The notes beneath the pieces are model-generated. The model searched no databases, was not told where the DNA came from, and saw nothing but the letters and a program-made list of their open reading frames with translations. A DNA stretch of 40,586 nucleotides from a plasmid. The position numbers and the translations under genes were made by a program. Numbering within the stretch: position 1 is the stretch's first letter; each line of letters opens with the position of its first letter. Location: NCBI RefSeq assembly GCF_055900595.2, contig NZ_JBVWEU010000005.1. One strand, 5' to 3'. This document shows positions 3,223-40,586 of the stretch, piece after piece.

Positions 3223-3227
3223 GGCCC

Positions 3228-3413
3228 TTACTCCGCATCAAAAGCGCTTTCGTATGCGTCACGTACATTCAGCGCATCATCTTCGAATGCCCCCACAAGA
3301 TCAGCCTCATCGGGAGAAAATTCGACTACATATCCCGGTGTCATCAGATCGCGATATTTTTCCTGTATTGCGTCGTTAACATCAGGGCGAATTACTGCAT
3401 TAGTATCAGTCAT
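3228..3413 (-). CDS. small acidic protein (TraD-like position between topoisomerase and primase)
   Basis: 61-aa acidic ORF tightly packed between the two genes; position matches traD in RP4 Tra1. Weak sequence-level support. Confidence 0.4.
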   Translation of the reverse strand: MTDTNAVIRPDVNDAIQEKYRDLMTPGYVVEFSPDEADLVGAFEDDALNVRDAYESAFDAE

Positions 3414-3428
3414 ATAGTGCCTCTACAA

Positions 3429-5459
3429 TTAAGCGCGTTTTATGGGGTTATAGTTTGGACTACCTTTAATATCTGGGTACGACTCCTTACAATTGGGATA
3501 ACCACTGCAAGACCAGAAGTGACCGGATTTTTTGGACGGACGACGAATAAGTCCTTTACCACATACCTTGCATTTGTACTTGTCAGAAATTTGCACACCA
3601 CCGGCAACTTTGATAGCTCCGGCATTAATAACCTTAATCTGCTCTCGTACAAATTTTTCCTGAATCTTCACAAAAGAATCAACGTCACGTTTCCCCTGCT
3701 CTATTTCCAGTAACATACGTTCGTTGATGGCTGTCATTACCGGGCTTTTAACAAGTTCTGGCAGAATGGCTATCAGCCCCCTTCCCAGCTTGGTACTGAT
3801 AATGTCTTTGCCTTTGTTTTCAATAAAACCACGTTTCTTTAAATCAGCAACAATTGTGGCGCGGGTAGCTGATGTGCCAATACCATCACCTTCCCGCAGT
3901 AATTTTTTCTGAGCCGGGTCTTCAACATACTTATGAATATTTTCCATTGCAGTGTTGAGTGTACCGTCATTAAAACGACGCGGAGCTTTAGTTTTAGCAT
4001 CCTGCCGCTGTGCCTGAGCACAAATAATTTCGTCACCATTTCTCATTGATGGAAGAGTCTGTTCAGACTCATTTTCTTTTTCTTCTTCATCCTCTCCATC
4101 TGAATAAACATCCTTCCATCCATTTTTAGTCGTTACGCGACCACCGGCCCCAAATGTTTCACCATTAACATCAATAATAATTGATGTCGCTTTATATTCA
4201 TGTACTGGATAAAATTGAGCCAAGTATGTTCTTACGATAAGGTCGTAAATATTACGCTCTTCTGGCGTAAGCCTTTCAACGTTACCTTTGTGCATCGTTG
4301 GGATAATGCCGTGATGCGCTGTAACCTTAGAGTCATCAAAAGTTTTTGATTTTACTTTTGGATCAGCCTTATCGATTAGAGCAGCTATTCCCGGATAAGT
4401 AACCCGAAGAGAATCCAGAATTTGAGGTGCATCTGCGTGTTGAGATTCAGGCAAATAAGAACTATCAGAACGTGGATAACTGGTAAGTTTATGCGTTTCA
4501 TAAAGAGACTGGCATATAGCCAGCACTTGCTCACCAGAATAACCAAACTTACTTGAAGCAACAGCGGTGATACTGCCAAGAGAATAGGCTTTTGGATGAT
4601 ATTTTTTCTTTGGCTCTTGCTTATATTCAACAACCTTACCGGATTTTCCGGTTAAAGCCGCTACTAGCTTATCAGCTTCTTTAGTGTCAATAAGCCTTCC
4701 CTCTGAATCAAGCCCTGGCTGATCTTCTCTGGCCTGCCATGCCGCAACAAACGCTCCTTTGTCATGTTTAAAGACAGCTTTAATATTGTGATAAGGAATT
4801 GGTTTGAAGTTTTCAATTTCGAGATCGCGGGCAACAACAAGTGCCAGCGTTGGTGTCTGAACTCGCCCGACCGTCAACAGAACACGCGAGCCACCACGCG
4901 CTGCCGACAACGTGAATCCTCTTGAAAGGTTCATTCCAACCAACCAGTCAGCCCGACCACGCGCAAGAGCTGCACGTCCAAAATTTACATATTTATCGTT
5001 GTTCTCAAGTCCTTTCAACGCCCTTGTGACACTTACCGTATCATTCGCATTACACCAGTAACGCAGAACCGGTTTAGTACATCCCATGTCATCAAGGATT
5101 TCATCAACCAGTAACTGCCCCTCGCGATCTGGATCGCCAGCATTTACAATCGTGTCAGCTCGCTCAACCAAATGCTGGATGGTTTTCAGCTGTTTCTCAG
5201 CATCTTCACGAGGATTAATAATCCATTTTTCGGGGATAATTGGCAGTTCATCTTCTCGCCAGATTTTTTTACCGCTTTCATTACGAGGCACATTGTCTGG
5301 TGTATATTCATCAGGTTCAGCCTGCTCAAACATATGACCAAAACACCAAGTCACATAGTCACTGCCGCACTCAATGTAACCGTCTTTTTTATTGGTTGCG
5401 CCTAATACCTCAGCGATAGCCCTTGCAACCGTCGGTTTTTCTGCAATAAATACTCTCAT
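3429..5459 (-). CDS. traE: DNA topoisomerase III (TraE-like), with C-terminal zinc ribbon
   Basis: 676 aa; N-terminal Toprim (MRVFIAEKPTVARAIAEVLG), C-terminal CxxC...C..C; strong SD (GGGAG); position as in RP4 Tra1. Confidence 0.85.
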   Translation of the reverse strand: MRVFIAEKPTVARAIAEVLGATNKKDGYIECGSDYVTWCFGHMFEQAEPDEYTPDNVPRNESGKKIWREDELPIIPEKWIINPREDAEKQLKTIQHLVERADTIVNAGDPDREGQLLVDEILDDMGCTKPVLRYWCNANDTVSVTRALKGLENNDKYVNFGRAALARGRADWLVGMNLSRGFTLSAARGGSRVLLTVGRVQTPTLALVVARDLEIENFKPIPYHNIKAVFKHDKGAFVAAWQAREDQPGLDSEGRLIDTKEADKLVAALTGKSGKVVEYKQEPKKKYHPKAYSLGSITAVASSKFGYSGEQVLAICQSLYETHKLTSYPRSDSSYLPESQHADAPQILDSLRVTYPGIAALIDKADPKVKSKTFDDSKVTAHHGIIPTMHKGNVERLTPEERNIYDLIVRTYLAQFYPVHEYKATSIIIDVNGETFGAGGRVTTKNGWKDVYSDGEDEEEKENESEQTLPSMRNGDEIICAQAQRQDAKTKAPRRFNDGTLNTAMENIHKYVEDPAQKKLLREGDGIGTSATRATIVADLKKRGFIENKGKDIISTKLGRGLIAILPELVKSPVMTAINERMLLEIEQGKRDVDSFVKIQEKFVREQIKVINAGAIKVAGGVQISDKYKCKVCGKGLIRRPSKKSGHFWSCSGYPNCKESYPDIKGSPNYNPIKRA

Positions 5460-6100: not shown

Positions 6101-8040
6101 ATTGCGATAGCCTCATTACTGGCGTCATCATTCGCGGCAGCTACAGCTCGAATCCGATCGGTAACTTTTGGTGCAGGTACAGAAGCACGAAGCGAGAAAA
6201 TCTCATCTTGGAAAAACAACGGCTGTTTTCCATAGATAGCCGGAAAACCTGCCACATAAATAACCATGTCACCGCGCTCGGTAATCAGACCTTCAGCATT
6301 CTTCTTAGGTCCTGGCATACGCAGGCATTCATCCACTGTCAGAAGTGGGCGCTGTACTTCCTGAATGGTTTTGGATACTCCACCCAATATCGCACTGGCA
6401 CGTTTCCCGCTGGTTGTGATCTGCTCTTTGATAACCGTTGTCTGTCCAGTCAACTTAGAAAGGTGCTCTGCAGTCTCAGTACGGTTAGGTGGATATGCGT
6501 TCTGCACATGGCAGTTAGAGGTTATTGTTTCATCCGGCCCATAACCTGTTTCACGGCTACGCAACTGATTAATATCCTGGCAGATGAGGTAGAACTTGAT
6601 GCCATAACCTGCAAGGAAAGCCAATGATTCCTGAATGATTTCGAGTTTACCCAGACTTGGAAACTCATCGATCATTCCCAGAAGACGATGTTTGTAGGTT
6701 TTCTTTGTCTGTACTCTTTTTGTTCCCTGAACTGAAAAACCAAACGCCTGTTTAAAACGCTGCCATAACGTAAGGTTGTTATCTACACGCTCAAATTCCA
6801 TCTTGTCAGCCAGCAAACGAACAATCATGTTCAGCATGATTCGTACCAGCGGACGCAGACGAGCTTTATCATTAGGCTGAGTAACGATATACAGCGAAAC
6901 CGGATCATCATGATTCATCAGGTCTTTTATTTTAAAATGTGACTCACTGACGTTACGAGCCACAACTGGATCACGGAAAAGGGCGAGATAAGATTTTGCG
7001 GTAGACAGCACGGAACCGGCTTCTTCTTCCGGGCGGTCCATCATGTCACGACCGGCAGCCCCCACCACCGGATGATTCTCGCCATTTATGTGACTATATT
7101 GCGTCATTTCCATCCACAATTCCCCTGCCCCTCTTTCCGGGTCGGCCATGATGGAGTCAACATACGGAAGCGTTGCTGGCGTACCTTCATTTTTGTGCTT
7201 GTAAAGTACATGGAGGATCACACCGACTAAAAGCGCCTGGGATGTTTTCTGCCAGTGGTCATTTAGTCCTTTACCGTCCGGGTCAACTATCAGCGTGGCA
7301 AGATTCTGAACGTCGCCAACTTCGTTTTCAGTGCCCACACGGATTTCATCAAGAGGATTCCAAGCGACGGAACCATTAGCTGCAGCAGGTTCGAATTTCA
7401 GACACAGATTCTTGGCATATTCTTTACGCCAGCCCGCCGTCATCGCCCACAGTTCACCTTTAAGGTCAGCCACTACCGTTGAATGTTTCCAGGAAAGCAA
7501 GGTGGGAACAACCAGGCCGACACCTTTGCCAGAACGGGTAGGTGCATACGTCAGAACATGTTCCGGGCCGTTGTGACGCAGATACCGCAACTGACCGTTT
7601 TTGTCTTCCCACGCACCAACATAAACACCTTCATCATTCAGCAAACCAGCATCTCTGATATCCTGCTCATCAGCCCATCTTGCAGAGCCATGAAGATATT
7701 CGTTAGCCTTGGATGAATTTGCTTTCATCATACTTGTCAGCGCGGTCAGAACTAGGCCACCGGCAGCAACCGCCGCCCCCACACTGCCAGCAGCAAAAAA
7801 CGCATCAGGTAAGCGCTCATGCCATGCTGAATACCATTTGAAATAGGACCACGGCGCATAGATGTGATTAAAGTTCGGCCCCAACAGTTCCTGATAATTA
7901 AAGCTGTAAGCAAAATACTGTGTGGCGGCCTGAATGCCAGCCGCCAGTGAAGTTATAGCCATCGCCGGGATCAGTTTCCCTTTCGCTGCCTTCTTTTTAT
8001 TACGGACCTGCGGCCCTACGGCATTATTTGGCTTTCTCAT
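6097..8040 (-). CDS. traG: type IV coupling protein (TraG/VirD4 family ATPase)
   Basis: 647 aa, N-terminal TM segments, Walker A-like PTRSGKGVG; perfect SD AAGGAG upstream. Confidence 0.9.
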   Translation of the reverse strand: MRKPNNAVGPQVRNKKKAAKGKLIPAMAITSLAAGIQAATQYFAYSFNYQELLGPNFNHIYAPWSYFKWYSAWHERLPDAFFAAGSVGAAVAAGGLVLTALTSMMKANSSKANEYLHGSARWADEQDIRDAGLLNDEGVYVGAWEDKNGQLRYLRHNGPEHVLTYAPTRSGKGVGLVVPTLLSWKHSTVVADLKGELWAMTAGWRKEYAKNLCLKFEPAAANGSVAWNPLDEIRVGTENEVGDVQNLATLIVDPDGKGLNDHWQKTSQALLVGVILHVLYKHKNEGTPATLPYVDSIMADPERGAGELWMEMTQYSHINGENHPVVGAAGRDMMDRPEEEAGSVLSTAKSYLALFRDPVVARNVSESHFKIKDLMNHDDPVSLYIVTQPNDKARLRPLVRIMLNMIVRLLADKMEFERVDNNLTLWQRFKQAFGFSVQGTKRVQTKKTYKHRLLGMIDEFPSLGKLEIIQESLAFLAGYGIKFYLICQDINQLRSRETGYGPDETITSNCHVQNAYPPNRTETAEHLSKLTGQTTVIKEQITTSGKRASAILGGVSKTIQEVQRPLLTVDECLRMPGPKKNAEGLITERGDMVIYVAGFPAIYGKQPLFFQDEIFSLRASVPAPKVTDRIRAVAAANDDASNEAIAI

Positions 8041-11464: not shown

Positions 11465-11523
11465 ATGCCGCATACACCGGAAAACCAAGGTTTTCCGGGC
11501 GGTTTACAACTGTTATCCTGCTC

Positions 11524-17357: not shown

Positions 17358-17948
17358 CTAACGACTTAATTTCTTCTTTTTCATTCTGGCCTGCTCAATC
17401 TCTGTCCCAGCGACTTTTTTAAACCAATCAGGCAAATCATTAGAAATGAACTTTGTTTTATCTTGTTCTGTGCGGAAAAGTAATCGCCGTCTGTTATAAC
17501 TGTTATCAAATACCCATACCCGGTCAGCCACGGCCATAGCTTTAGGTAGGTTGGTTACAGAACGCTCGTATCGTCTGAAAATATCATCAACAGGCACATT
17601 ATGACCACCAAGGCTTACACGCTGGTTAACGCGAGCTACTGACATTCCTACATCTTTCACCCCCACATAGATTAAATTAATTTTGTAACCTGCAGTTGCA
17701 GCAAGCTGCATTAACTTAATCTCCCCCATTCCTGTGAGTGTCGTTTCTACAGCGAAAGTACATCTATTTTTGATATTTTCCGTGCGCAGAAAAAGTGCCT
17801 GCTCTCCTGCCTTTCGATTGCTTATACCTTGTTCCCGCGCAATATCATCAGGGTTAACAACCTCTATTTTCCCAAGGATATGTCGCTTAACTAGGGTAGA
17901 TTTTCCTGCACCATTAGGCCCAGCAATAACCCAGAGTTGAGGACGCAT
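17358..17948 (-). CDS. zeta-toxin-like P-loop kinase
   Basis: 196 aa; Walker A AGPNGAGKST at residues 9-18, then IEVVNPDDIA resembling the zeta-toxin hhhDNDxF segment; ATGA start/stop overlap with the upstream ORF. Confidence 0.55.
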   Translation of the reverse strand: MRPQLWVIAGPNGAGKSTLVKRHILGKIEVVNPDDIAREQGISNRKAGEQALFLRTENIKNRCTFAVETTLTGMGEIKLMQLAATAGYKINLIYVGVKDVGMSVARVNQRVSLGGHNVPVDDIFRRYERSVTNLPKAMAVADRVWVFDNSYNRRRLLFRTEQDKTKFISNDLPDWFKKVAGTEIEQARMKKKKLSR

Positions 17949-18199
17949 CAGAGCTTAACCTCAACTACTTTTTCTGTACCAGTCATGAAACTCACCAGTT
18001 CCTTACGGCCATCTGGATATTCTTTTATAACACACCCTTCTGGTGTATTTCGTTCAGCGTAATAAATAGGTACGCCACTAAGAAGATTGGCACGGGCTTC
18101 TTCACCTGCATCATATCCAAGTTGTCTATCAAAAACGGTAAAAAATCGTGCTTCATCAGAAGGTGTCATTTCGGCCAGATGAGATAGATCCATACTCAT
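17948..18199 (-). CDS. small protein translationally coupled to the kinase (candidate antitoxin/partner)
   Basis: 83 aa, acidic; its stop overlaps the kinase start. Confidence 0.45.
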   Translation of the reverse strand: MSMDLSHLAEMTPSDEARFFTVFDRQLGYDAGEEARANLLSGVPIYYAERNTPEGCVIKEYPDGRKELVSFMTGTEKVVEVKL

Positions 18200-18956: not shown

Positions 18957-20075
18957 TCACGATTCACCTGTTTTGTTGTCTTCCAGTAATTTCAGTTGAT
19001 CAATATTGTAAAAAGTACGAACGCAAGTAGGGTCAAAATCCACTACCTGAGTTCCGCGACGGTTGATTCGATAACGTATAGGCTTATCTTCATGCGCCTC
19101 CACACATCCTGAATCGTATATCGTAACGATTTTTACAATAGTGCCAATATTTTTAGCAAACACCGGATGATGCACACTCACGATTTCACATCGAGCACCA
19201 ACGTAAAATTCTTTATAACGCTGAACAGTAATCATCCGCTCTTTGTATTCTTTGGAACGCTCCTTTGCCAGTTGCTTGCGCCGTTCGCTTTCGGCCCGCA
19301 TAGTTTCTCTTTCAGCCTCCCGCTCTCTCTGCATAATAGCTGTAATGCGTTCCTGAGCTGCTACAGCCCATTTACGGGCGATAAATGCTTTAGAGGCGGG
19401 TAATAACGCCTCGACCCTAACAAAGCCGTCAGGGAGCGTTAGAGGCGTTCTATCAGGGGGGGGCGAAAGGGATTTTAACCAATCAGGCAAAGGCTCAGAT
19501 GCCAGCCTGTCACGGAAATCAGCAGAGATAAAAGCAGGTTTCTTTCTGGCGTCAATCAGGCTTTGAAATACGCGGGATACGTGTGCATCAACGGTTTCTC
19601 CAGGTCTGACTTCTGAAAGCCTAACAAAATGCGAACGATACCCTGTTTCGGATACAAAGGGTGCGCCTAAATCAACGGCATGAAACGAGGTGGAAAGATA
19701 CCCCATCATACATCCGGCTTCGACCTTAACCCTTGCTCGCATACCACTGAAACTTTCGATGATAAAATCACCGTGCTGACCCCACATAGGAACGCTACCG
19801 TCATCAGCACGGCAATATTCACTGATAACATGAGCCGCTTCATGTTCACCGGCATTACACCCAAAGAAGGTTTTACCGTTCATTTTCCAGATACAGGCTT
19901 CAAACCGGTACACAGCATCATGACGCTGTTGCAGATCACCGGTCATACAGGCTTTATTCAAATCAATTAGCGCTGAGTACGCCGCGTCCAGAATGCGATG
20001 GTCGTCCGGCAGCTGCTGCGCAATGGCTTCCATTTGCTGATCGCGAGAGTCATCGCCAGGATAATGTTTGGACAT
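18957..20075 (-). CDS. klcB: KlcB-like protein
   Basis: 372 aa; contains LPDGFVRVEALLPASKAFIARKW, the KorA/TrbA-type C-terminal motif; position after klcA. Confidence 0.6.
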   Translation of the reverse strand: MSKHYPGDDSRDQQMEAIAQQLPDDHRILDAAYSALIDLNKACMTGDLQQRHDAVYRFEACIWKMNGKTFFGCNAGEHEAAHVISEYCRADDGSVPMWGQHGDFIIESFSGMRARVKVEAGCMMGYLSTSFHAVDLGAPFVSETGYRSHFVRLSEVRPGETVDAHVSRVFQSLIDARKKPAFISADFRDRLASEPLPDWLKSLSPPPDRTPLTLPDGFVRVEALLPASKAFIARKWAVAAQERITAIMQREREAERETMRAESERRKQLAKERSKEYKERMITVQRYKEFYVGARCEIVSVHHPVFAKNIGTIVKIVTIYDSGCVEAHEDKPIRYRINRRGTQVVDFDPTCVRTFYNIDQLKLLEDNKTGES

Positions 20076-20122
20076 ATTAAACCCCTGAAAAATCCCCTGC
20101 AGAGCAGGGGATAAAGACTCAC

Positions 20123-20590
20123 TTAATCGATGGCCGCACGGAACTGCTCATATTCTTGATGCCCGCTGGCGTAATCAAACAGCTGATGATAATAAGCACT
20201 GCATCTTTCTGAAAATGGCAGATTAGAATTAGCAAGCTGGGCCAGCACAAAACTGGTTGCCACCATACCTGCAGCTTCTGCGCTTAACAAACCGTCAAAG
20301 TAATTACCCTGGACAGAAATACGGTAATGTTCACGGCTGTTTGGTGCCATAAAATAACCACCATTTGAAAGTTCATAAAAATCCCACTCACCACCATCGT
20401 AATGGGCTTCAATTTTATCCAGCGCACTACTTAAATATTGGCTTTTATTTTCAGGACTTAATTTACGCATCCACTTATAAGTGTGGTTTTCCACCAAACG
20501 CCAGTATTGGCCGAAGAATTTCGGCATAAACATCAGGCGTTCTTCATAATCTGTAAGTTTACGAGCAGTAACGATAACTTCATTATTCAT
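20123..20590 (-). CDS. klcA: KlcA/ArdB-family antirestriction protein
   Basis: 155 aa; position and size match KlcA downstream of oriV; putative OC in its promoter. Confidence 0.6.
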   Translation of the reverse strand: MNNEVIVTARKLTDYEERLMFMPKFFGQYWRLVENHTYKWMRKLSPENKSQYLSSALDKIEAHYDGGEWDFYELSNGGYFMAPNSREHYRISVQGNYFDGLLSAEAAGMVATSFVLAQLANSNLPFSERCSAYYHQLFDYASGHQEYEQFRAAID

Positions 20591-20643
20591 CGGAGTTCTC
20601 CGGTAATTGACCTGAGTGACTTACCCGGCCTTCACAAACATTA

Positions 20644-20660
20644 TAGGACATTTTGTCCTA
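20644..20660. promoter_or_regulatory. putative KorC-type operator TAGGACA-TTT-TGTCCTA
   Basis: Perfect 17-bp palindrome about 55 bp upstream of the klcA start. Confidence 0.55.
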
Positions 20661-20679
20661 TAATGTGAAGTGTTTTATT

Positions 20680-20886
20680 TTATTTCCCGACAAATTCTGG
20701 ATACAGCAACCACCCAATAACAATGATACATGCAATATCAAAAAATAGAGAACAGTATAAATAAATACCTTCTGCTTTAATAAATTTTGTGAAGTGTGAA
20801 TTAAACAAATCAGCACTTATATTCTCTTTGAGATCTTTATTCATTTTCTTGGCGTCAATCATCGCGTCAATTGACTTTATTAGCAA
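20680..20886 (-). CDS. small AT-rich hydrophobic ORF (possible membrane peptide)
   Basis: 68 aa, hydrophobic C-terminus, low GC; no convincing SD checked. Confidence 0.25.
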   Translation of the reverse strand: MLIKSIDAMIDAKKMNKDLKENISADLFNSHFTKFIKAEGIYLYCSLFFDIACIIVIGWLLYPEFVGK

Positions 20887-21366
20887 TCAAAATGGAACAT
20901 GGAGCCACCAATTTAGAACATTCGAAAAATGATCCAATTTCGCATAACGATTCTAAGACGATCCCTTTAAAGCCCTTCTTTCTGGCGTAAACCCTCCGGT
21001 TCTGTAGCGCATCAGTATTTTGAAGTGTGCTTGGTATCTCTAGCGAGTATCTATGCCCGGCAAAGGTACTTTGCCGAGAGCGAAGCGGCCTATGCTCGCG
21101 TAGCGAGTGAGTCATCTTTGGGGTGAAGACCGCTTGCGGTCGAGGGGCTTGCCCCTGGGGGGATGGGAGGCCGCTTGCGGCCGGGAGGGATTGAGAAGGG
21201 GGGTTTCCCCCCTTCGGGGGCGTCGTTAGACGCGGTTAAAAATAAGGTTAATTTTTTTGGTTAAAAGTGGTTAAAGGATCGGTTAAAAGATCGGTTAAAG
21301 ATCTGGTTAGAGGGGTGTGCAAAACTCAATTAAAGCCATGATTATTAAGGGGAAAAATATCCACAT

Positions 21367-21495
21367 GCGCCCCTCATATGTCATAAAGTAGCCCCTCAAG
21401 TGTCGTAATTCCGCCCCTCAAATATCATGATAGCGCCCTTCATATGTCATAATAGCGCCCCTCAAGTGTCACCTTTCCGCCCCTTAAATGTCGTA
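21367..21495. repeat. six 17-bp iterons at exact 22-bp spacing
   Basis: Copies of GCGCCCCTCAAGTGTCA-like sequence (reverse complement TGACACTTGAGGGGC, the RK2 iteron consensus) with CCCCTCA cores at 21370, 21392, 21414, 21436, 21458 and 21480. Confidence 0.85.
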
Positions 21496-21625
21496 TCTTT
21501 ACCGGGATATTAACAGACTTATCCACAAATTAAGGGGATAATTCTAACGTCTGGTTAAGCTCTATACGCCTAAACAAAATTTCGTGCGGGCTAAACTCGT
21601 CCTAAACAAAGAAGGGCGCAATAAA

Positions 21626-21673
21626 GCGCCCCTCAACTGTCATAAAAAAAATATGTGCCCCTCAAGTGTCACC
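21626..21673. repeat. two further iterons, the second overlapping the trfA stop codon
   Basis: gcgcccctcaactgtca (core 21629-21635) and gtgcccctcaagtgtca (core 21658-21664); the trfA stop (plus-strand tca at 21662-21664) sits inside the second core. Confidence 0.75.
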
Positions 21674-22540
21674 ATTCCTCGCTGCGGCATCGTTAGTTCG
21701 TTTGCAATGAATACGATCTTTATCTATCCAAGCACTATGAATTAACCCACTATCTTTAAGCTCAGCACATGCTTTATTAACCTGCTCTCGCCACTTTTTC
21801 AGGCGGTCGGATTCCGAGCCACACATCATCTTGAATGTATCTAATTTCATAGGATATGGCTCCCGGTGAGAACCAAAGTAATCAAAGAGGCGGCGAGCTG
21901 TAGGTGAAAGTTTACGGTATTTCTCCCACACAAACTTTGAATAGTGCTCACCTGCAAAAAGCAAAACCATCTCTTTATCAATGATGACTTCACATCTTGA
22001 CGACCGTTTCCCACGGTCAAGAACGCGAAAGCGACCAATCAATGAAACAGATTCCAGTTGACCGACACGCTCAGAAATAAATTGCATGGCTGTTGCCTGT
22101 AGGCGTGTTAGGCACTCCTCGGCCTTTTCTATATAACGACCATTATAAGACCAGCCTAGATCCTGGCAAAGTTCGTAAAACGTGAAGGTAATAGGTTCAC
22201 CCATTGGTTTCCTTTTGGCGTATTCAAGAACCTGCTGCCACACAAGTTCATCGTCATCAGCACGTAACTCAAGCCCGGTATAGGTGATCCGCACATCTTT
22301 ATTAATGTGGAAAATCTCTTTCTTCTGCAGTGCTTCACGGGGCTGACGTTTATTCTTGACAGTAAACAGAGCAGAACGAGCATAATCGTTAGGTAATGCC
22401 CGCATCGAATCCGGCCATGGTGCAATGTCAAATAGCGTCAGTTGCTTCTCTGTCTGCCCTTCATTCGCCATTCTGGAGCGCTGATCAAGCGCTGCCTTTT
22501 TTAGCTTTTCAAGTTCAGAATTATTATTGTCATTCTTCAT
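21662..22540 (-). CDS. trfA: TrfA replication initiator
   Basis: 292 aa; segment LSPTARRLFDYFGSHREPYP matches TrfA as I recall it; iterons immediately downstream. Confidence 0.85.
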   Translation of the reverse strand: MKNDNNNSELEKLKKAALDQRSRMANEGQTEKQLTLFDIAPWPDSMRALPNDYARSALFTVKNKRQPREALQKKEIFHINKDVRITYTGLELRADDDELVWQQVLEYAKRKPMGEPITFTFYELCQDLGWSYNGRYIEKAEECLTRLQATAMQFISERVGQLESVSLIGRFRVLDRGKRSSRCEVIIDKEMVLLFAGEHYSKFVWEKYRKLSPTARRLFDYFGSHREPYPMKLDTFKMMCGSESDRLKKWREQVNKACAELKDSGLIHSAWIDKDRIHCKRTNDAAARNGDT

Positions 22541-22614
22541 AAGTGCCTCACCGCTTTGAAGCGCATTGAGAAAAGGCCCTCATCGGGCCTTCCATTCTAT
22601 ACCATCTTGCCCCA

Positions 22615-25136: not shown

Positions 25137-25463
25137 ATGGCATTACGCACGATCCCCATTCGTAGGGCGGCTTCAAGAACGAACCTCTTCATGGGCGGGG
25201 ACCGTGAATTGGTTATGTTTTCAATCCTACTGGCAGCGGTCCTTATCTTTATGTCACAAGACTGGATCGCTGTTGGTATAGGCATAGTGATGTGGGGGGG
25301 ATCACTTTTCCTGTTAAGGAAAATGGCTAAATCAGATCCGATGTTACGTCATGTTTATCTACGTAGCCTCAAATACAACCAGCCGTATTATGCGCCCCGT
25401 GCCACGCCGTTCCGCAAAAATACAGGAACCCAAGGCAAACGTTATGAAAGGGTGAAAAAATGA
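25137..25463 (+). CDS. trbD: TrbD (VirB3-like)
   Basis: 108 aa membrane protein, start 3 bp after the trbC stop. Confidence 0.8.
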   Translation: MALRTIPIRRAASRTNLFMGGDRELVMFSILLAAVLIFMSQDWIAVGIGIVMWGGSLFLLRKMAKSDPMLRHVYLRSLKYNQPYYAPRATPFRKNTGTQGKRYERVKK

Positions 25464-28003
25464 ATACCGCAATTCCTGTTTTAGTTGCGCTGATAGGGCT
25501 GATCTTGCTTGGCATGATGCTGGCTTACTATCAGCGTATGGTGAAGGAATATCACCTTAAAAAATATCGCTCAAAGGATGAATCCTTCGCCGACATGCTT
25601 AATTACGCCGCTGTTGTTGATGATGGTGTAATCGTATGTAAGAACGGTTCTTTTATGGCGTCTTTCTTTTTTAAAGGTGCAGACAACGCGAGTGCGACAG
25701 ACCAAGAAAGAGAGCTTGTCTCATTTCGTATTAATAAGGCAATTGGCAGACTCGGCAACGGCTGGATGATGCACGTTGATGCGATTCGCAATCCGGCTCC
25801 GTCATACAGTGACCGAAACGCTTCACACTTTCCTGATCGAGTTTCCGCTGCCGTGGATGAAGAACGTCGCCGCCTGTTTGAAAAGCTGGGGCAACTGTAC
25901 GAAGGCTGCTTTATCGTTACGTTCACCTGGTTTCCACCTGCACTGGCGGAAAGTAAATTCACGGAACTGATGTTTGATGATGAACGCGAAGTTTCTACCG
26001 ATAAAGACACTACGCTGAATCTCATTGAAAAATTTAAACATGAGATCAGCATAATTCAGGCAAACCTTTCGCAGGCTGTTTCGATTGAACGACTGAACGG
26101 CGTGAAAATCGAACAGGAAGACGGCTCCGTTGCAACGATGGATCAGCAGCTGGAGTACCTGCAGTATTGCATTACGGGGCTGCAACATCCTATACGTCTG
26201 CCAAACAATCCTATTTATCTGGATAGCCTCATTGGTGGTCAGGAGTTTATTCCTGGCATCACGCCACGTATCGGGAAAAACTTCATTCAGGTTGTGGCGA
26301 TTGAAGGCTACCCCTCTGAATCTTATCCAGGCATTCTCAGCAAGCTGGCCGAGCAGCCATGTGAATACCGCTGGTCTACGCGCTTTATTTTCCTTGATTC
26401 TCACGAAGCCATATCAAAACTGACGGCATTCCGCAGGAAATGGAAACAGAAAGTACGCGGCTTTATGTCCCAGCTATTCAATACCAATAACGGTTACGTT
26501 GATGAGGACGCCTTGTCCATGGTCAACGATGCATCTTCCGCTATTGCAGAAACTAACTCTGGTTTAGTCAGCCAAGGTTATATAACCAGTGTCATTGTCC
26601 TGATGAATGAGGACCGCCAGAAAGTCGAGGATGCCGCAGAGTTTATGCGCAAGGCTGTTAACAATACTGGCTTCGCTGCGAGAATTGAAACAGTAAATAC
26701 GGTGGATGCCTACTTTGGTTCCTTACCCGGCCACGGTGTTGAAAACGTACGGCGACCGCTGGTAAACACTCTTAACCTTGCCGATCTGATGCCAACCAGC
26801 ACTATCTGGCCGGGCGAAAATAAAGCCCCAAGTCCGCTATTCGAAGTAGGTGCACCGCCATTAACACACTGCGTTACTTCTGGAAACACTCCGTTCAGAC
26901 TTAACCTACATGTTCGTGATCTCGGCCACGCTTTCATGTTTGGGCCAACCCGTGCAGGTAAGTCTACCCACCTGGCGTTAACCGCTATGCAGTGGCGTCG
27001 TTACTCTAATTCGCGAATTTTCACTTTCGACAAAGGACTGTCGATGTTTGCAACCTGCAAGGCTGTAGGTGGAAAACATTTCACGATTGCCGGTGATGAT
27101 AACCAACTGGCGTTTGCACCTTTATCACGCCTTGATACCCCTACTCGCCGCACATGGGCGATGGAATGGATTGAAGCCATTCTGATCCTAAATGGGGTCA
27201 ATGTTGACGCACCTATGCGCAACTCTATAGCTGATGCTATTAAGAGTATGTCTGAGACTCATTCCAAAACCCTGTCTGAATTTACAGTCACGGTACAGAA
27301 CAATGTTATTCGTGAGGCGCTCAAACAATACACCATTGATGGCAACATGGGGCATCTGCTTGATGCAGAGGAAGATGGTCTTGATATTTCTGATTTCATG
27401 ACGTTCGAGATTGAACACCTTATGAACATGGATCAGAAATACGCACTACCTGTGCTGCTCTATCTCTTTCGTCGCATTGAAGAATCTCTGGATGGTAATC
27501 CTACACTCATCATTCTTGATGAGGCTTGGCTCATGCTGGGTCATCCAGAATTCAGGGGAAAAATCCGCGACTGGCTTAAATCCATGGCGAAGAAAAACTG
27601 CGCTGTTCTTATGGCAACTCAGCAGCTTAGTGATGCGGCCAATTCTGGCATTCTTGATGTCATTATTGAGTCAACTGCCTCCAGATTTTTCTTGCCAAAC
27701 GGCAATGCCCTGCAGGAAGAAGCTATGTCTCTGTATATCAATATGGGGCTTAATCGCCGCCAAATTGAAATCATCGCGTCAGCTGTACCAAAACGCGATT
27801 ACTACTATGTATCCGAACAAGGTCGTCGCCTGTATCAGCTTGCACTAGGGCCACTTGCGTTGGCATTTGTAGGAGCCACAGATCCCGATTCAATCGCAAC
27901 AATTAAACAACTGTCTGAAACATACGGTGATGGTTGGGTTGATGAATGGCTACGCACTAAAGGACTGGACTTAAATGATTACGAGTATGAGGTTGCTGCA
28001 TGA
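25460..28003 (+). CDS. trbE: TrbE (VirB4-family ATPase)
   Basis: 847 aa, Walker A GPTRAGKST, start overlaps the trbD stop. Confidence 0.9.
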   Translation: MNTAIPVLVALIGLILLGMMLAYYQRMVKEYHLKKYRSKDESFADMLNYAAVVDDGVIVCKNGSFMASFFFKGADNASATDQERELVSFRINKAIGRLGNGWMMHVDAIRNPAPSYSDRNASHFPDRVSAAVDEERRRLFEKLGQLYEGCFIVTFTWFPPALAESKFTELMFDDEREVSTDKDTTLNLIEKFKHEISIIQANLSQAVSIERLNGVKIEQEDGSVATMDQQLEYLQYCITGLQHPIRLPNNPIYLDSLIGGQEFIPGITPRIGKNFIQVVAIEGYPSESYPGILSKLAEQPCEYRWSTRFIFLDSHEAISKLTAFRRKWKQKVRGFMSQLFNTNNGYVDEDALSMVNDASSAIAETNSGLVSQGYITSVIVLMNEDRQKVEDAAEFMRKAVNNTGFAARIETVNTVDAYFGSLPGHGVENVRRPLVNTLNLADLMPTSTIWPGENKAPSPLFEVGAPPLTHCVTSGNTPFRLNLHVRDLGHAFMFGPTRAGKSTHLALTAMQWRRYSNSRIFTFDKGLSMFATCKAVGGKHFTIAGDDNQLAFAPLSRLDTPTRRTWAMEWIEAILILNGVNVDAPMRNSIADAIKSMSETHSKTLSEFTVTVQNNVIREALKQYTIDGNMGHLLDAEEDGLDISDFMTFEIEHLMNMDQKYALPVLLYLFRRIEESLDGNPTLIILDEAWLMLGHPEFRGKIRDWLKSMAKKNCAVLMATQQLSDAANSGILDVIIESTASRFFLPNGNALQEEAMSLYINMGLNRRQIEIIASAVPKRDYYYVSEQGRRLYQLALGPLALAFVGATDPDSIATIKQLSETYGDGWVDEWLRTKGLDLNDYEYEVAA

Positions 28004-35247: not shown

Positions 35248-35616
35248 TTAGGGCTTTTTTTTCAAAGTCGAAAGTGCGTAAACTATTCTTGATATAGATA
35301 ATATATCTTTTTTATCTAAACTGGATATATTCCAGACGATGAAATTATGAGCCTTAACAACTTCGTCATTTTGCTCATCATTTTTTAGCATTGCATCTTC
35401 CTTTATATTAACAATATCTCCATGTGCCAATTCATTTAAATCAACGCCTGTCACCATCGCAATTTTAATAATATCACTGAACTTAGGTTCAGTTTTACCG
35501 GACGCTATCCTGACCAGCGTACTCACGCTAATGCCAGTCTTCTCGGCCAGTTCTTCATAAGTCGAGTTTTCCAGAATTACATTCTTGATTCTTTCCGCTC
35601 TAATTTCTTTGCTCAT
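35248..35616 (-). CDS. XRE-family HTH protein
   Basis: 122 aa, HTH LAEKTGISVSTLVRIASGK; low-GC gene downstream of the recombinase. Confidence 0.55.
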   Translation of the reverse strand: MSKEIRAERIKNVILENSTYEELAEKTGISVSTLVRIASGKTEPKFSDIIKIAMVTGVDLNELAHGDIVNIKEDAMLKNDEQNDEVVKAHNFIVWNISSLDKKDILSISRIVYALSTLKKKP

Positions 35617-35647
35617 TTAATCTCTACCTTATATTATTTAAATTTAA

Positions 35648-36274
35648 TTACTTATTTTTATGTTTAGACCATACAGCTTTTACAAGACTAACGCTACATT
35701 CACAAAGTTTCGCTGTTTCCGCAATACTCGTCTTCCTTGAACGATACTCAATGATGCGTTTATGGAGCCGTAGATTTGCAGTTCGCCCCTGATACCGGCC
35801 TTGCCGTTTAGCCAGCTCAATACCCTCTTTCTGGCGTTTACGACGGTTTTCATACTCATCCCTTGCCAACTGTAGGGCAACTTTGAGTAACATATCCTGA
35901 ACAGATTCCAGAACGACCTTCGCGACACCGGATTGAGCGTTTGCCAGTTCGGTAAGATCCACAATACCGGGAATGGCGAGCTTCGCTCCCCGCTCTTTTA
36001 TAGAGTTTATTAACGCTAACGCACTATCGAGCGGTAAACGACTGATACGATCTATATGTTCTGCAATAACTACTTCGTCTAGCTGCAGATCATCAATCAT
36101 ACGTTGCAGTTCCGGGCGGTCAGCTCTTGCACCGGACGCCTTTTCTTTATAGATACCGGCAACATAGAATCCATTATTCCTGGCATTTTCAATAATTTCA
36201 TTTTGCCGGGTTAAATCTTGTTCGTCTGTACTAACCCGCAAATATATTCGCGCTATTTTCATATAATAAAACAC
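35648..36274 (-). CDS. serine recombinase (resolvase/invertase family)
   Basis: 208 aa; N-terminal catalytic motif YLRVSTDEQ, C-terminal HTH. Confidence 0.8.
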   Translation of the reverse strand: MFYYMKIARIYLRVSTDEQDLTRQNEIIENARNNGFYVAGIYKEKASGARADRPELQRMIDDLQLDEVVIAEHIDRISRLPLDSALALINSIKERGAKLAIPGIVDLTELANAQSGVAKVVLESVQDMLLKVALQLARDEYENRRKRQKEGIELAKRQGRYQGRTANLRLHKRIIEYRSRKTSIAETAKLCECSVSLVKAVWSKHKNK

Positions 36275-36345
36275 CCCAGCAAATCAATCACGCAATCATC
36301 TATCAATATTCTCTGGTTATGTCTCTTTCTCGCATTATCCATTCG

Positions 36346-36711
36346 TTATTTAATTATGTTTTCTGATGCATGGAGCAACCAGTAGAATATAATCATTCCC
36401 GCACCAGAAAACACTGCGGCGACAGCGAGCCACAAACGCTTATGCACTCCTTCTGATATGCCTGAGAAATATCCTGTATGGAGTAGCAGCAGCGACCATG
36501 ACAACCCTCCTGCCAGACCCAGCAGGGCAGGAGGGATATGCCACAGTTCATATTTCATAATAACAATACCTTCTGCCATCATCATGGACAGAGTGCAAAC
36601 AACAAAACAGTCCCATGAAAAAAAACGCCTGTCAGCAGCAAGAAAAATCACTGTCAGTGACATCACTGTCACTTGGGCCAGCAATAAAGGCCATAAAGAA
36701 ATAAAATTCAT
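36346..36711 (-). CDS. small integral membrane protein
   Basis: 121 aa, 3-4 hydrophobic helices; upstream of the recombinase on the same strand. Confidence 0.45.
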   Translation of the reverse strand: MNFISLWPLLLAQVTVMSLTVIFLAADRRFFSWDCFVVCTLSMMMAEGIVIMKYELWHIPPALLGLAGGLSWSLLLLHTGYFSGISEGVHKRLWLAVAAVFSGAGMIIFYWLLHASENIIK

Positions 36712-36771
36712 TTAATCTTCTCCTCAAGTGCCTTTAAAGTAAATGCGTAGGCTAGTTAATTAAGGTATACC

Positions 36772-36803
36772 CTAAAAAACCACTCGGTGAGTGGCAGGTT
36801 TTT
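36772..36803. terminator. bidirectional hairpin terminator
   Basis: CCACTC-GGT-GAGTGG stem-loop flanked by an A-run on one side and a T-run on the other. Confidence 0.45.
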
Positions 36804-37012
36804 TACTGCACTCACAGTGTAAACTGGCCAGGACAATCAAGGCAACCTTAAAAAGCCATCAATGTGATAAAAATGACATGACATCACTTTTATCACTTTT
36901 TAATGTGGTAGCATCATCTAATGTTGAATCATTAATTACTGTCATTTACTACAAGATTTACGCCATAAGAAAAAAAGCAAAACTCGTAATATTAGCTATC
37001 AGCAGCTACGAT

Positions 37013-37025
37013 TTTAGCCGCTAAA
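37013..37025. promoter_or_regulatory. KorB operator (OB) TTTAGCCGCTAAA
   Basis: Perfect 13-bp palindrome. Confidence 0.8.
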
Positions 37026-37039
37026 AGATTCTCTTACTT

Positions 37040-37663
37040 CTATTTATCTTTAAATTCATCCTGCAGCTTATCAATGCCTTTAGTTAAATCTTGACTTTTA
37101 CCATCTTTATAATCAGGCCATGGAATAAACATCTTTCCTGATTCCTGCATCATTGCAATTGATGTAGGACAGCGCCATTCAGATTCATCACCTTTTTTGT
37201 ATTTAAAAACAACCATTCCACGTTCACACTTAACATCGGGGGAAATGGACTGAATAAACATCGAATTAGCGGAACCATTCTCACCGGCATTGAACATTGC
37301 GCTGTCAAAAAATATAAATGCGAGAATTAATGAGAGAACGGCACAACCAGTATTCCAGAATTTCTTTCCACGTTCGGAATAAAATGAAAACATCATCACC
37401 ATTGCTAGAGATGAAATAAAACCTAACCATTGTGACGCAACTGAAAGTTGTGAAAGCGTTTTAACTGTATAACCACCTTCACCAGAAAGGAAAGACAAAA
37501 TAAACGGTGAAACAATAAAGCAAATTGCTGGAAAACAGGTAAATATCAGTTTGGCATTATTCTTGATTAACTGGCGCTCTCCAGAAGCCGCCGCGATCAT
37601 CGACTGCCACATGATTTTTACCAGCGTCAGCATCAGAACACTGCAGATCAACATATAAAGCAC
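37040..37663 (-). CDS. membrane protein with C-terminal soluble domain, under two putative OC operators
   Basis: 207 aa, about 4 TM helices then a charged C-terminal region; function unknown. Confidence 0.55.
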   Translation of the reverse strand: MLYMLICSVLMLTLVKIMWQSMIAAASGERQLIKNNAKLIFTCFPAICFIVSPFILSFLSGEGGYTVKTLSQLSVASQWLGFISSLAMVMMFSFYSERGKKFWNTGCAVLSLILAFIFFDSAMFNAGENGSANSMFIQSISPDVKCERGMVVFKYKKGDESEWRCPTSIAMMQESGKMFIPWPDYKDGKSQDLTKGIDKLQDEFKDK

Positions 37664-37706
37664 GGCTTACTCCCAATCCTTAGACGCTTTGAAAACCACT
37701 TGCAAA

Positions 37707-37723
37707 TAGGACAAAATGTCCTA
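37707..37723. promoter_or_regulatory. putative KorC-type operator TAGGACA-AAA-TGTCCTA
   Basis: Perfect 17-bp palindrome 44 bp upstream of the 207-aa gene. Confidence 0.55.
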
Positions 37724-37732
37724 TCATAGATG

Positions 37733-37749
37733 CAGGACATAATGTCCTA
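37733..37749. promoter_or_regulatory. putative KorC-type operator CAGGACA-TAA-TGTCCTA
   Basis: Second copy 10 bp from the first; tandem arrangement. Confidence 0.5.
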
Positions 37750-37816
37750 TATGAAGGATGATAGGGAGGCAGCAACCTCCCTATCCGACACCTAAAATCC
37801 GTGCAAGGAATTTGAA

Positions 37817-38023
37817 ATGTCCCATATATCCTATAGCAAAACAGCATCATATGACAGACGGCCACTGGAGTATCTTTCCCTGTCAGATTTCATCCATGCT
37901 CTTCCAACCGTTACCATTGATGAGATTGAAAAACTCGCTGAGACAAACATCCACTTGGTCGAGCAGATACCACGTTACCTGAGCCAAATGGTCAGCCATG
38001 AATGCAGACTTATTGGTTTTTAA
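37817..38023 (+). CDS. small ORF in the divergent intergenic region
   Basis: 68 aa with AAGGA-like SD; may be a leader or regulatory peptide, or spurious. Confidence 0.25.
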   Translation: MSHISYSKTASYDRRPLEYLSLSDFIHALPTVTIDEIEKLAETNIHLVEQIPRYLSQMVSHECRLIGF

Positions 38024-38097
38024 TAGATCTTATTAAAAATAAATAGATACATATAGAATCAATTTGAAACTTTTAATGAAGACAAACCGCCCTCATT

Positions 38098-39084
38098 ATG
38101 AAGCCACACACTCTCCCAAAATGGTGCGTTATGAAAAAATTTCAGGTCAGAAATTTCCCGGACGATGCATATTTCGCCTTGGAACAGTTAGCAAACGAAA
38201 ATCAACGTTCGGTCGAAGGTGAGGCCCGCTATGCTCTGTTGAAATGGATAGCACCTCCTGAGCAGGTTTATTCTGGAGAAGAACTATACCGGCAGGAAGT
38301 GTCTGGCCGCCTCAATACAGTTCTGCGGAAAACCAACCAATTCCGTAACTACAAACCTCTTGTGCCGTCCAATGTGGCCGTAGAGCTGAGGATTGAAGAT
38401 CTTGGCCTTGTCGCCAACTGGTTCAGTGGTGACGTACTCCCTTCCTTCACTGAGCTGCAGCGGTTAAGCAAGTTATTTGGTTGTCGCGCCGACTGGTTAA
38501 TTCACGGTGAGGGGGATGTGTATGAATGGAACTCAGGCGTCAGAATGCACGGCGCAGGCCGGGCTGCTGTTAAGCACCTTCTCAGACCTGATAGTGATGG
38601 TAATAAAGTCACAGACATCAGGCTGCTAAGAGAAGATAGTGATATAGGAGCACTTCTGATACTCCGTGAGTTTGAAAATACACGGTATGTTGATGCGTTC
38701 TGGACAAACCTACACGTAAGTGAAGCCATTGGAGCCGGTGGCGAGTCTGATTTGGCTGATTTTTTTGTCACTCTTCGGGCGCTGTACAAGAGTTTTGTCA
38801 AACTTGATGTAAACGTCAAAGGCTACCTTATGCCGCGATCTGCCTATAAGCAAATCAGAGAAGAGGAACAAGCCTATCCACTGATGCTTCTCAAGGATTA
38901 TCGTGTAAATGAAAGCATGTGGTGGGAGGATATTTGGGATAAAAGTCAAAGAGGTAAATTTAATTACTGGAAAGGTGATGAGGCGCTGATTCGTCGCATT
39001 GAAGATGCAATAAAGCGTAATAAAAGATTGCTTGATGAAATTGAAGCTATTAAAAACTCAGATCCTTTGGACCATGATGATTAA
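38098..39084 (+). CDS. multidomain protein: Arc/MetJ-type ribbon-helix-helix, XRE-like HTH and a ~180-aa C-terminal domain of unknown function
   Basis: Segment MKKFQVRNFPDDAYFALEQLANENQRSVEGEARYALLKW resembles RHH proteins; ...LSKLFGCRADWLIHGEG resembles the end of an XRE HTH. True start may be the ATG at 38131. Confidence 0.55.
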   Translation: MKPHTLPKWCVMKKFQVRNFPDDAYFALEQLANENQRSVEGEARYALLKWIAPPEQVYSGEELYRQEVSGRLNTVLRKTNQFRNYKPLVPSNVAVELRIEDLGLVANWFSGDVLPSFTELQRLSKLFGCRADWLIHGEGDVYEWNSGVRMHGAGRAAVKHLLRPDSDGNKVTDIRLLREDSDIGALLILREFENTRYVDAFWTNLHVSEAIGAGGESDLADFFVTLRALYKSFVKLDVNVKGYLMPRSAYKQIREEEQAYPLMLLKDYRVNESMWWEDIWDKSQRGKFNYWKGDEALIRRIEDAIKRNKRLLDEIEAIKNSDPLDHDD

Positions 39085-39095
39085 CGTTCATTTAT

Positions 39096-39108
39096 TTTAG
39101 CCGCTAAA
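39096..39108. promoter_or_regulatory. KorB operator (OB) TTTAGCCGCTAAA
   Basis: Perfect 13-bp palindrome 12 bp after the stop of the RHH-HTH gene. Confidence 0.8.
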
Positions 39109-39118
39109 AATTAACAAT

Positions 39119-39146
39119 AGCCGGGGTTTACCCGGCTGTTTTATTT
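39119..39146 (+). terminator. rho-independent terminator
   Basis: Hairpin AGCCGGG-GTTTA-CCCGGCT followed by GTTTTATTT. Confidence 0.55.
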
Positions 39147-39356
39147 CACATTCCGCCAGGCAGACGCAGGAACCTTATCCCAGATTTTTCCATGATAAAT
39201 TTCTGCCTTGCGATGATCATAAGCACTCAGAAAATCGCTAAGATGTTCAGAAGAAACAATGTCCCGCTTATGTTCATAAAGGCGTTCAACTGTATCTATC
39301 GTTCTGCAACGCCGGAACATATACAAAAACTCGGACCTTTTATCTGAATGACTCAC
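39141..39356 (-). CDS. small hypothetical protein downstream of the lipoprotein gene
   Basis: 71-aa ORF whose first codon is GTG; overlaps the lipoprotein stop. Confidence 0.3.
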   Translation of the reverse strand: MSHSDKRSEFLYMFRRCRTIDTVERLYEHKRDIVSSEHLSDFLSAYDHRKAEIYHGKIWDKVPASAWRNVK

Positions 39357-39844
39357 TTAGTTAGTCCTTTTGCCTTAGCCTGTTCTACTGCATCTGCAAT
39401 ATCTTTAATCATTTCGCTCATTACATCAGCGCTGAACAACGGGCCTGCCGAAGTCATTACGGCGACATGATACAGCTTTAGCGGTGTGCCTTTGCTGTAT
39501 TGCTCGCTGGAACTAATGCTCAAAACGGAGTAAGACACCTTTTCAGTATTCGAGCCGCAAACCTTTTTATTGACATCAATAATACGGCTGTCTTTATTTT
39601 TCGAAAGAGTCTGTGTAAGTACACCAGAGTAAATACATTTATCGTCGTGTGATATTAAGTTTATTTCCTTCGGCGTAATGTCATTTTTTTCAATCGGAGT
39701 ATCTAGCATCACCATTATTGGTGTTTCATCAGCGTTTCCTTTTATCATATTATCAACAATTCCACAGCCAGCACATGGAAATCCGGTGGCATAAGTTAAA
39801 GGGGTAAAAATTAATAAAAACGCTGCGATATATATCTTTTTCAT
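39353..39844 (-). CDS. secreted protein or lipoprotein of unknown function
   Basis: 163 aa with N-terminal signal peptide MKKIYIAAFLLIFTPLTYA; low GC; downstream of the primase gene. Confidence 0.5.
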   Translation of the reverse strand: MKKIYIAAFLLIFTPLTYATGFPCAGCGIVDNMIKGNADETPIMVMLDTPIEKNDITPKEINLISHDDKCIYSGVLTQTLSKNKDSRIIDVNKKVCGSNTEKVSYSVLSISSSEQYSKGTPLKLYHVAVMTSAGPLFSADVMSEMIKDIADAVEQAKAKGLTK

Positions 39845-39989: not shown

Positions 39990-40586
39990 TTACATAGCGT
40001 GGCGAATGGTCCGTTTTTTCTCTTTTTCCTGAATGAGTTTCTTCTCTTCGGTCTGGACCTGTGACTGCTGCTGTTTTTTATTCAGCTGGTCAGCAATGAC
40101 GGCTTTCAACTGCATCGCCACACCTTCCCGGCCAAGAGAACTATTTACGGCCAGATCGTTAAAGTCAGTATAACGATCAGCACGGCGAATAATATCAAGC
40201 TGCTTTTCCGATAACTGTGCTGCCTGCAGAACCTTCACTTCGGCATCCGAGAGTGGCTTATCACCGCTCGTATGGGCCTCCAGTTTGCGCGAGGCGGTCT
40301 GGTGTGCAAGATACGCCGCCGGTTTAATCTGGCTGAGTTCGTCTTTACCAGGTAATTCACCTTTAGCAAAAACCGGAAACACAGCCACACCGCCGACAGC
40401 TTTCGCTGTTTCCAGCGCTTTTTCCCTACCGACGTTTACACTGGCTTTATCCTTCACCTTCATTTTGCATGACTGAGAAATATCATCATCACCGGCAATG
40501 ATGATTGGCTTATCGGGGTAGGCTTCTTTAAGCGTTTTCGCGACAGATTCCAGATTACCTGAATCGAAGGCGGCGACCGTTGGTAT
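39990..40586 (-). CDS. traC: C-terminal part of a Toprim primase (IIIAGDDD motif); most likely the continuation of traC across the window junction
   Basis: Minus-strand frame is open from 40586 to the stop at 39990: IPTVAAFDSGNLESVAKTLKEAYPDKPIIIAGDDD... The codon phase matches the left-edge ORF exactly. Confidence 0.6.
   Translation of the reverse strand: MPTVAAFDSGNLESVAKTLKEAYPDKPIIIAGDDDISQSCKMKVKDKASVNVGREKALETAKAVGGVAVFPVFAKGELPGKDELSQIKPAAYLAHQTASRKLEAHTSGDKPLSDAEVKVLQAAQLSEKQLDIIRRADRYTDFNDLAVNSSLGREGVAMQLKAVIADQLNKKQQQSQVQTEEKKLIQEKEKKRTIRHAM

Follow-up and report, generated by a model that had tools for sequence, protein, structure and literature searches.

We conclude that the window, by which we mean the whole 40,586-base stretch of DNA that was analysed, is almost certainly one turn of a circular IncP-1-type conjugative plasmid of ~40.6 kb that was cut within traC, and that this gene encodes a polyvalent protein of the TraC1 type. 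The best explanation for the molecule as a whole is a backbone-only member of an enterobacterial clade that includes the plasmid pSTEC2018_607-e. Since the sequence appears to have been opened at an arbitrary base inside traC, the ORFs that run off its two edges would be the halves of one gene. On the minus strand, the left-edge ORF begins with an ATG at 3222-3220 (MAEAKAKK...) and stays open through its last codon at 3-1 (translation of 1-3300), so that its peptide ends in ...LIVAEGYATAGSITEATN; the right-edge ORF begins with a complete codon from 40586, reads IPTVAAFDSGNLESVAKTLKEAYPDKPIIIAGDDD... as far as ...RTIRHAM, and stops at a TAA after 198 codons. Both open edges, the complete codons at 1-3 and 40584-40586, and the two edge peptides had been given in a preliminary description of this DNA, and our translation reproduced them. 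The same description had joined base 40586 to base 1 and expected a primase gene product of about 1270 aa; translated on the minus strand, the join gives one uninterrupted frame of 3819 nt and 1272 aa. The gene thus lies in two parts:

1 to 3222, minus strand: traC 5' part, codons 1-1074 of 1272, last complete codon N1074 at 3-1 (from translation and identity to WP_000796540.1)
39990 to 40586, minus strand: traC 3' part, codons 1075-1272 (40586-39993) and the TAA stop at 39992-39990

We looked for an overlap between the window ends of the kind that marks an untrimmed circular assembly, and none reaching 10 bases was found. traC is the largest gene, with 3819 of the 40,586 bases (9.4%), and it is therefore unremarkable that an arbitrary linearisation point should fall inside it.

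The domain content of the joined protein supports its reading as an ArdC-metallopeptidase-primase fusion of the TraC1 type. A Pfam scan of the 1272-aa product, done on two overlapping pieces, together with the motifs gave the following arrangement, in protein order:

2848 to 3195, minus strand: ArdC-N ssDNA-binding domain, residues 10-125 (Pfam PF08401, E 2.3e-33)
2371 to 2748, minus strand: zincin-like metallopeptidase (MPTase-PolyVal), residues 159-284 (Pfam PF18818, E 1.8e-47), with a HELSH motif
1012 to 2310, minus strand: central region, about residues 305-737, without a Pfam domain and specific to the plasmid clade
691 to 1011, minus strand: two DUF5710 repeats, residues 738-777 and 801-844 (Pfam PF18974, E 6.7e-16 and 2.3e-16)
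1 to 54, minus strand: first part of the Toprim domain, residues 1057-1074 (Toprim_3 match), with EGYATA (1061-1066) at bases 42-25
40395 to 40586, minus strand: second part of the Toprim domain, residues 1075-1138 (Toprim_3 match), with DDD (1107-1109) at bases 40490-40482

The Toprim_3 match at residues 1057-1138 spans the junction between residues 1074 and 1075 (E 1e-7), and it appears only with the junction joined: the 1074-aa left piece alone gave no Toprim match in Pfam. The Toprim score in Pfam is modest, and the generic Toprim model reached only E 0.026. The EGYATA glutamate, E1061, lies 46 residues before the DDD motif, exactly the spacing of about 46 that the preliminary description had derived from the two edge peptides, and within the ~40-50 residues by which a D-x-D follows the conserved glutamate in a DnaG-type Toprim core. 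Two of its terms have to be narrowed. It had called the gene a primase gene, which holds for the C-terminal Toprim primase region but not for the protein as a whole, because the first ~300 residues form an ArdC-type/metallopeptidase module; and it had called the domain DnaG-type, which holds for the Toprim fold only, since no zinc-finger family, and so no counterpart of the CHC2 zinc-finger domain of bacterial DnaG, was among the Pfam matches of TraC. Judged from its sequence, TraC has the Toprim fold in common with DnaG without being its orthologue; its family is that of the plasmid P/I-type primases.

The closest counterpart among characterised plasmid groups is TraC1 of the IncP-1alpha plasmids (RP4/RK2), represented here by the 1061-aa pBS228 protein WP_011205813.1. 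Its N-terminal module (residues 2-302) is 75% identical to residues 4-304 of window TraC, and its C-terminal module (531-1041) is 50% identical to residues 738-1252, with no gap at the junction, where AEGYATAGSITEATN/IPTVAAFDSGNLE of window TraC aligns ungapped with GEGYATAATVAEALGHATVAAFDSGNLQ of TraC1. EGYATA, FDSGN, GDDD and TDFNDL are common to both proteins, and the two DUF5710 repeats of window TraC align to both corresponding repeats of TraC1. The two differ in length, window TraC being 211 aa longer, in the region between the modules, where residues ~305-737 have no BLASTP alignment to residues 303-530 of TraC1, and in a 6-aa insertion of window TraC within ISQSCKMKVKDKAS, just after DDD (residues ~1110-1123, bases 40440-40481). 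At this last place, the Sog protein of IncI plasmids and TraC of IncL/M plasmids are even shorter than TraC1.

The IncP-1beta proteins resemble window TraC to a similar degree in the two modules: the ArdC-like module is 75% identical in R751 TraC (1448 aa) and 74% in pBAM1 TraC (1578 aa), and the primase module is 48% and 47% identical, respectively. Compared with window TraC, however, both are extended by ~220 residues at the N terminus and differ in the central region, which is longer. More distant are IncI Sog, for which we took the protein of an IncI-gamma/K1 plasmid, and IncL/M TraC, whose primase regions are 32% and 34% identical to that of window TraC, respectively, over alignments of ~340-360 aa. 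In these two proteins the primase is N-terminal, without the ArdC-N or metallopeptidase module that window TraC carries, and both belong to MPF_I rather than MPF_T transfer systems. Across the alignment with pBAM1 TraC, IncI Sog and IncL/M TraC, the AEGYATA, G-N and D-x-D motifs are invariant. The alignment to TraC and Sog proteins that the preliminary description had envisaged is thus ungapped through the junction against IncP-1alpha TraC1 of pBS228 and against IncI Sog, as it also is against pBAM1 TraC and IncL/M TraC, making four homologues.

The N-terminal module has a relative of known structure. Residues 4-292 of window TraC match the crystallised ArdC of R388 (PDB 6SNA, 6I89) with E ~1e-48, and this match takes in the full length of the R388/pSa (IncW) ArdC including its HExxH motif, where HELSHWTGH of TraC aligns with HEATHWTGH of ArdC. 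ArdC of R388 is a stand-alone protein of ~300 aa without a Toprim domain, unlike window TraC (PMC7213743).

The two modules flank the central region. While relatives of the primase module were found by tblastn in 4258 plasmid records, the central region was found in only 131; in a spread sample of 25 of these 131 records, 21 carry it at an identity of at least 82%. At residues ~305-737, no Pfam domain was matched, and BLASTP against IncP-1alpha TraC1, R751 TraC and pBAM1 TraC gave no alignment. Weak matches, at ~30-38% identity, were seen in a small number of large Klebsiella plasmids, in Shewanella, and in a plasmid of an uncultured bacterium, where traC carries the annotation of a primase. 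It is tempting to regard this region as a previously undescribed effector module that the polyvalent protein delivers to recipients, but we hold this to be doubtful; it could equally well be a fast-evolving linker.

In RP4, translation from a start within traC, just after the ArdC module, also yields the shorter TraC2. In window traC, the only internal in-frame ATGs with a Shine-Dalgarno-like sequence upstream are those of M488 (1762-1759) and M936 (418-415). Neither lies just after the ArdC module, where TraC2 of RP4 begins; M936 is inside the primase region, and a start at M488 would give a candidate TraC2-like product of 785 aa. Such a shorter product from M488 might also express the central region.

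Based on its family, we propose the following scheme for the action of window TraC. During conjugation, the Toprim primases TraC1 (RP4) and Sog (IncI1) enter the recipient, where they prime the complementary strand, and in TraC1 the first ~300 residues at the N terminus form an ArdC-like domain (PMC7213743, PMC5512222). By homology with RP4 TraC1 and IncI Sog, window TraC would likewise be carried into the recipient cell during conjugation. There, its ArdC-like N-terminal module would bind the incoming single strand and probably counter restriction; for ArdC itself, ssDNA binding and antirestriction have been shown, and antirestriction by TraC1 is considered reasonable, though putative (PMC7213743, PMC5512222). 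The C-terminal Toprim primase would lay primers for complementary-strand synthesis, with E1061 and D1107-D1109 as the predicted catalytic acidic residues. The metallopeptidase may process TraC, perhaps freeing or activating domains once the protein has reached the recipient, or its target may be one of the host (PMC5512222). Primase activity, transfer and antirestriction are thus functions that window TraC would be expected to have as a member of this family; what the sequence itself shows is the closed reading frame, the identity to a known protein, the domains with their conserved catalytic motifs, the synteny and operon position, and the complete backbone.

One could instead suppose that window TraC is mainly an ArdC-type antirestriction/metallopeptidase effector, and that its Toprim region is an inactive relic. 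RefSeq indeed names the protein after its N-terminal module, as "zincin-like metallopeptidase domain-containing protein," and conservation is highest in this module, which is 75% identical to its TraC1 counterpart while the primase part is 50% identical. The generic name, however, is also that of R751 TraC (39518-43864) and of IncP-1alpha TraC1 of pBS228 (19421-22606), and since these proteins have it in common, it reflects an annotation rule and not a function. Moreover, AEGYATA, GN and D-x-D are all kept along with the homologues, and because all conserved primase motifs are intact, we regard a dead primase as improbable and retain the reading of TraC as a polyvalent protein with a probably working primase module. 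In RefSeq, IncI Sog and IncL/M TraC go by another name, "LPD7 domain-containing protein." An NCBIfam scan of full-length TraC found no family at E <= 0.01, and a full-text literature search for "EGYATA" returned irrelevant papers only; the motif paper is reportedly that of Strack et al. in 1992. What the names and the NCBIfam scan reveal is an annotation gap, in which an experimentally characterised family of IncP primases is without a matching NCBIfam model and is labelled in RefSeq as a metallopeptidase only.

The strongest evidence that the window closes on itself comes from other plasmids. We built a 2-kb junction query by joining the final 1000 bases of the window to its initial 1000 and searched it in PLSDB, where it is contiguous in 109 independently deposited plasmids. 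In the E. coli plasmid pSTEC2018_607-e (NZ_CP075702.1), which is 40,792 bp, circular and conjugative (MOBP/MPF_T), it matches as a single piece at 100% identity, and the joined 1272-aa product is 100% identical to WP_000796540.1, which is annotated there as one CDS. Window base 1 corresponds to base 28144 of NZ_CP075702.1 and window base 40586 to base 28145. The window ends are thus adjacent bases in a closed circular relative, which agrees well with a circular molecule linearised inside traC, as the preliminary description had proposed.

Collinearity extends beyond the junction. A BLAST of the whole window against pSTEC2018_607-e covers the full circle in three large collinear blocks at 98.9-99.9% identity, and all 44 genes in the PLSDB gene table of that plasmid are present at full length in the window with 96-100% protein identity, traC being the only one that spans the window ends. 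The main, and the sole sizeable, structural difference is the spacer between klcA and oriV, which measures 395 bp in the window (20682-21076) and 590 bp in pSTEC2018_607-e (6885-7474), with no BLAST alignment between the two; this accounts for most of the 206-bp gap in length between the window and pSTEC2018_607-e. Relatives that are 98.8% identical (e.g., pCFSA664-2) fall ~50 bp short of the window along the 2-kb junction query, and since their traC is also 3819 nt long, this difference must lie outside traC. Larger relatives of 47-62 kb at 92-93% identity come from Klebsiella, Enterobacter, Salmonella and Citrobacter. For IncP plasmids of this group, mcr-1, cfr and blaKPC have been reported as cargo.

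Could the window nevertheless be a single repeat taken from something larger, be it a plasmid multimer, a cointegrate or a tandem copy integrated in the chromosome? A monomer circle and a head-to-tail multimer read identically at the level of sequence, and 5 of the 119 places matched by the trfA region are on E. coli chromosomes. An integrated copy, however, would end at its integration site and not at adjacent bases within traC. The window amounts to exactly one unit, its ends neither overlapping nor leaving a gap, and many independently closed circular plasmids of ~40-42 kb share its size and gene order; for these two reasons we consider a multimer or an integrated copy very unlikely. Instead, by comparison with these relatives, we infer that this particular molecule is physically circular as well. 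As for a coincidental match in frame, of separate genes or of a truncated gene and an unrelated ORF on a linear fragment, two open-ended ORFs are expected to join in phase 1 time in 3 by chance, but this idea is refuted, and in our view has next to no likelihood left, by the 100% identity of the joined sequence to an annotated single protein of 1272 aa (WP_000796540.1), by a Toprim domain and four homologue alignments, that of TraC1 among them, running ungapped through the junction, and by the contiguity of the junction DNA in 109 plasmids.

In practice, the window is to be handled as a complete plasmid and treated as a circle, and a single traC gene should be annotated across its edges in place of two truncated genes. 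Plasmid type and protein family were both known before, as was the protein, which is in RefSeq in identical form, and biologically nothing is added by this analysis. The primases of RP4, R751 and Sog are experimentally characterised, and complementation of a dnaG(ts) host has been used for those of RP4 and ColIb. Work going back to the 1990s describes both ArdC-primase fusions of the TraC1 type and the transfer of these proteins to recipients.

The rest of the window contains a complete backbone. Replication is represented by trfA and ssb, with TrfA, at 21665-22540 (gene at 21662-22540, minus strand), 100% identical to WP_019842081.1, and stability and control by klcA, a klcB-like gene, kleE, a korA-like gene, incC (parA), korB (parB), kfrB and kfrC. 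The Tra1 region comprises traM, traL and traK, followed by traJ, traI, a small ORF at the traH position, traG, traF, traE, an ORF at the traD position and traC, and the Tra2 region runs from trbB to trbN. Between trbD and trbF, where R751 has a gene for a VirB4-family ATPase, the window has an 847-aa ORF (25460-28003). The backbone features that bear most directly on traC, replication and transfer are the following:

3231 to 3413, minus strand: 61-aa ORF at the traD position, immediately upstream of traC, matching WP_000132695.1 over its full length
3429 to 5459, minus strand: DNA topoisomerase III gene at the traE position, the upstream neighbour in the Tra1 operon
21367 to 21646, no strand assigned: oriV iterons, six at exact 22-bp spacing (21367-21497) and a seventh at 21626-21646
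11514 to 11520, plus strand: candidate oriT nick-region motif ATCCTGC between traJ and traK, read from the sequence

The surroundings of traC are those of its IncP-1 counterparts: the gene lies in the Tra1 operon downstream of traG-traF-traE-traD in the window and in pSTEC2018_607-e as in pBS228, R751 and pBAM1. The window shares the order traE-traD-traC with the IncP-1beta plasmids R751 and pBAM1, R751 having "protein TraD" at the position of the 61-aa ORF, and pBS228 has its topoisomerase III gene (traE) upstream of traC, in the order seen in the window. The iteron core, GCCCCTCAAGTGTCA, is the reverse complement of the TrfA iteron of RK2, TGACACTTGAGGGGC, and the seventh copy sits 149 bp beyond the array, adjoining the end of trfA. 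The ATCCTGC motif between traJ and traK matches the RP4 nick-region consensus. With this gene content, the window would hold everything for a self-transmissible IncP-1-like replicon, and no resistance gene is annotated among the genes mapped in it. In PLSDB/MOB-suite, the replicon type of the nearest relatives is "rep_cluster_2175," whereas R751, pBS228 and pBAM1 are typed as "IncP"; the separate label points to a diverged enterobacterial clade that is IncP-1-like.

Several smaller features of the window deserve mention. Near the oriV iterons, CGGTTAA-rich repeats occupy 21233-21310 and two GC-rich 21-mers lie at 21127 and 21168; in the klcA-oriV spacer (20682-21076), short direct repeats occur at positions 20780 and 21011. 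A zeta-toxin-family gene of 196 aa (17361-17948) is situated between kleE and the korA-like gene, with an abutting upstream ORF of 83 aa (17951-18199), and the two may form a toxin-antitoxin pair. At the corresponding place in R751 and pBS228, no zeta toxin is annotated. The stretch between trbN and traC (35251-39844) is accessory and, by annotation, free of resistance genes; it has an HTH regulator, a serine recombinase/resolvase and several hypothetical genes, as well as a Hha/YmoA-family gene (39144-39320) and an ORF of 163 aa (39353-39844) that is annotated in some relatives as TraB or as a KfrB-domain protein. Beyond it, just downstream of the traC stop, the intergenic segment 39845-39989 carries the GC-rich inverted repeat CTGGCCTGCCTGCGGGCCAG.
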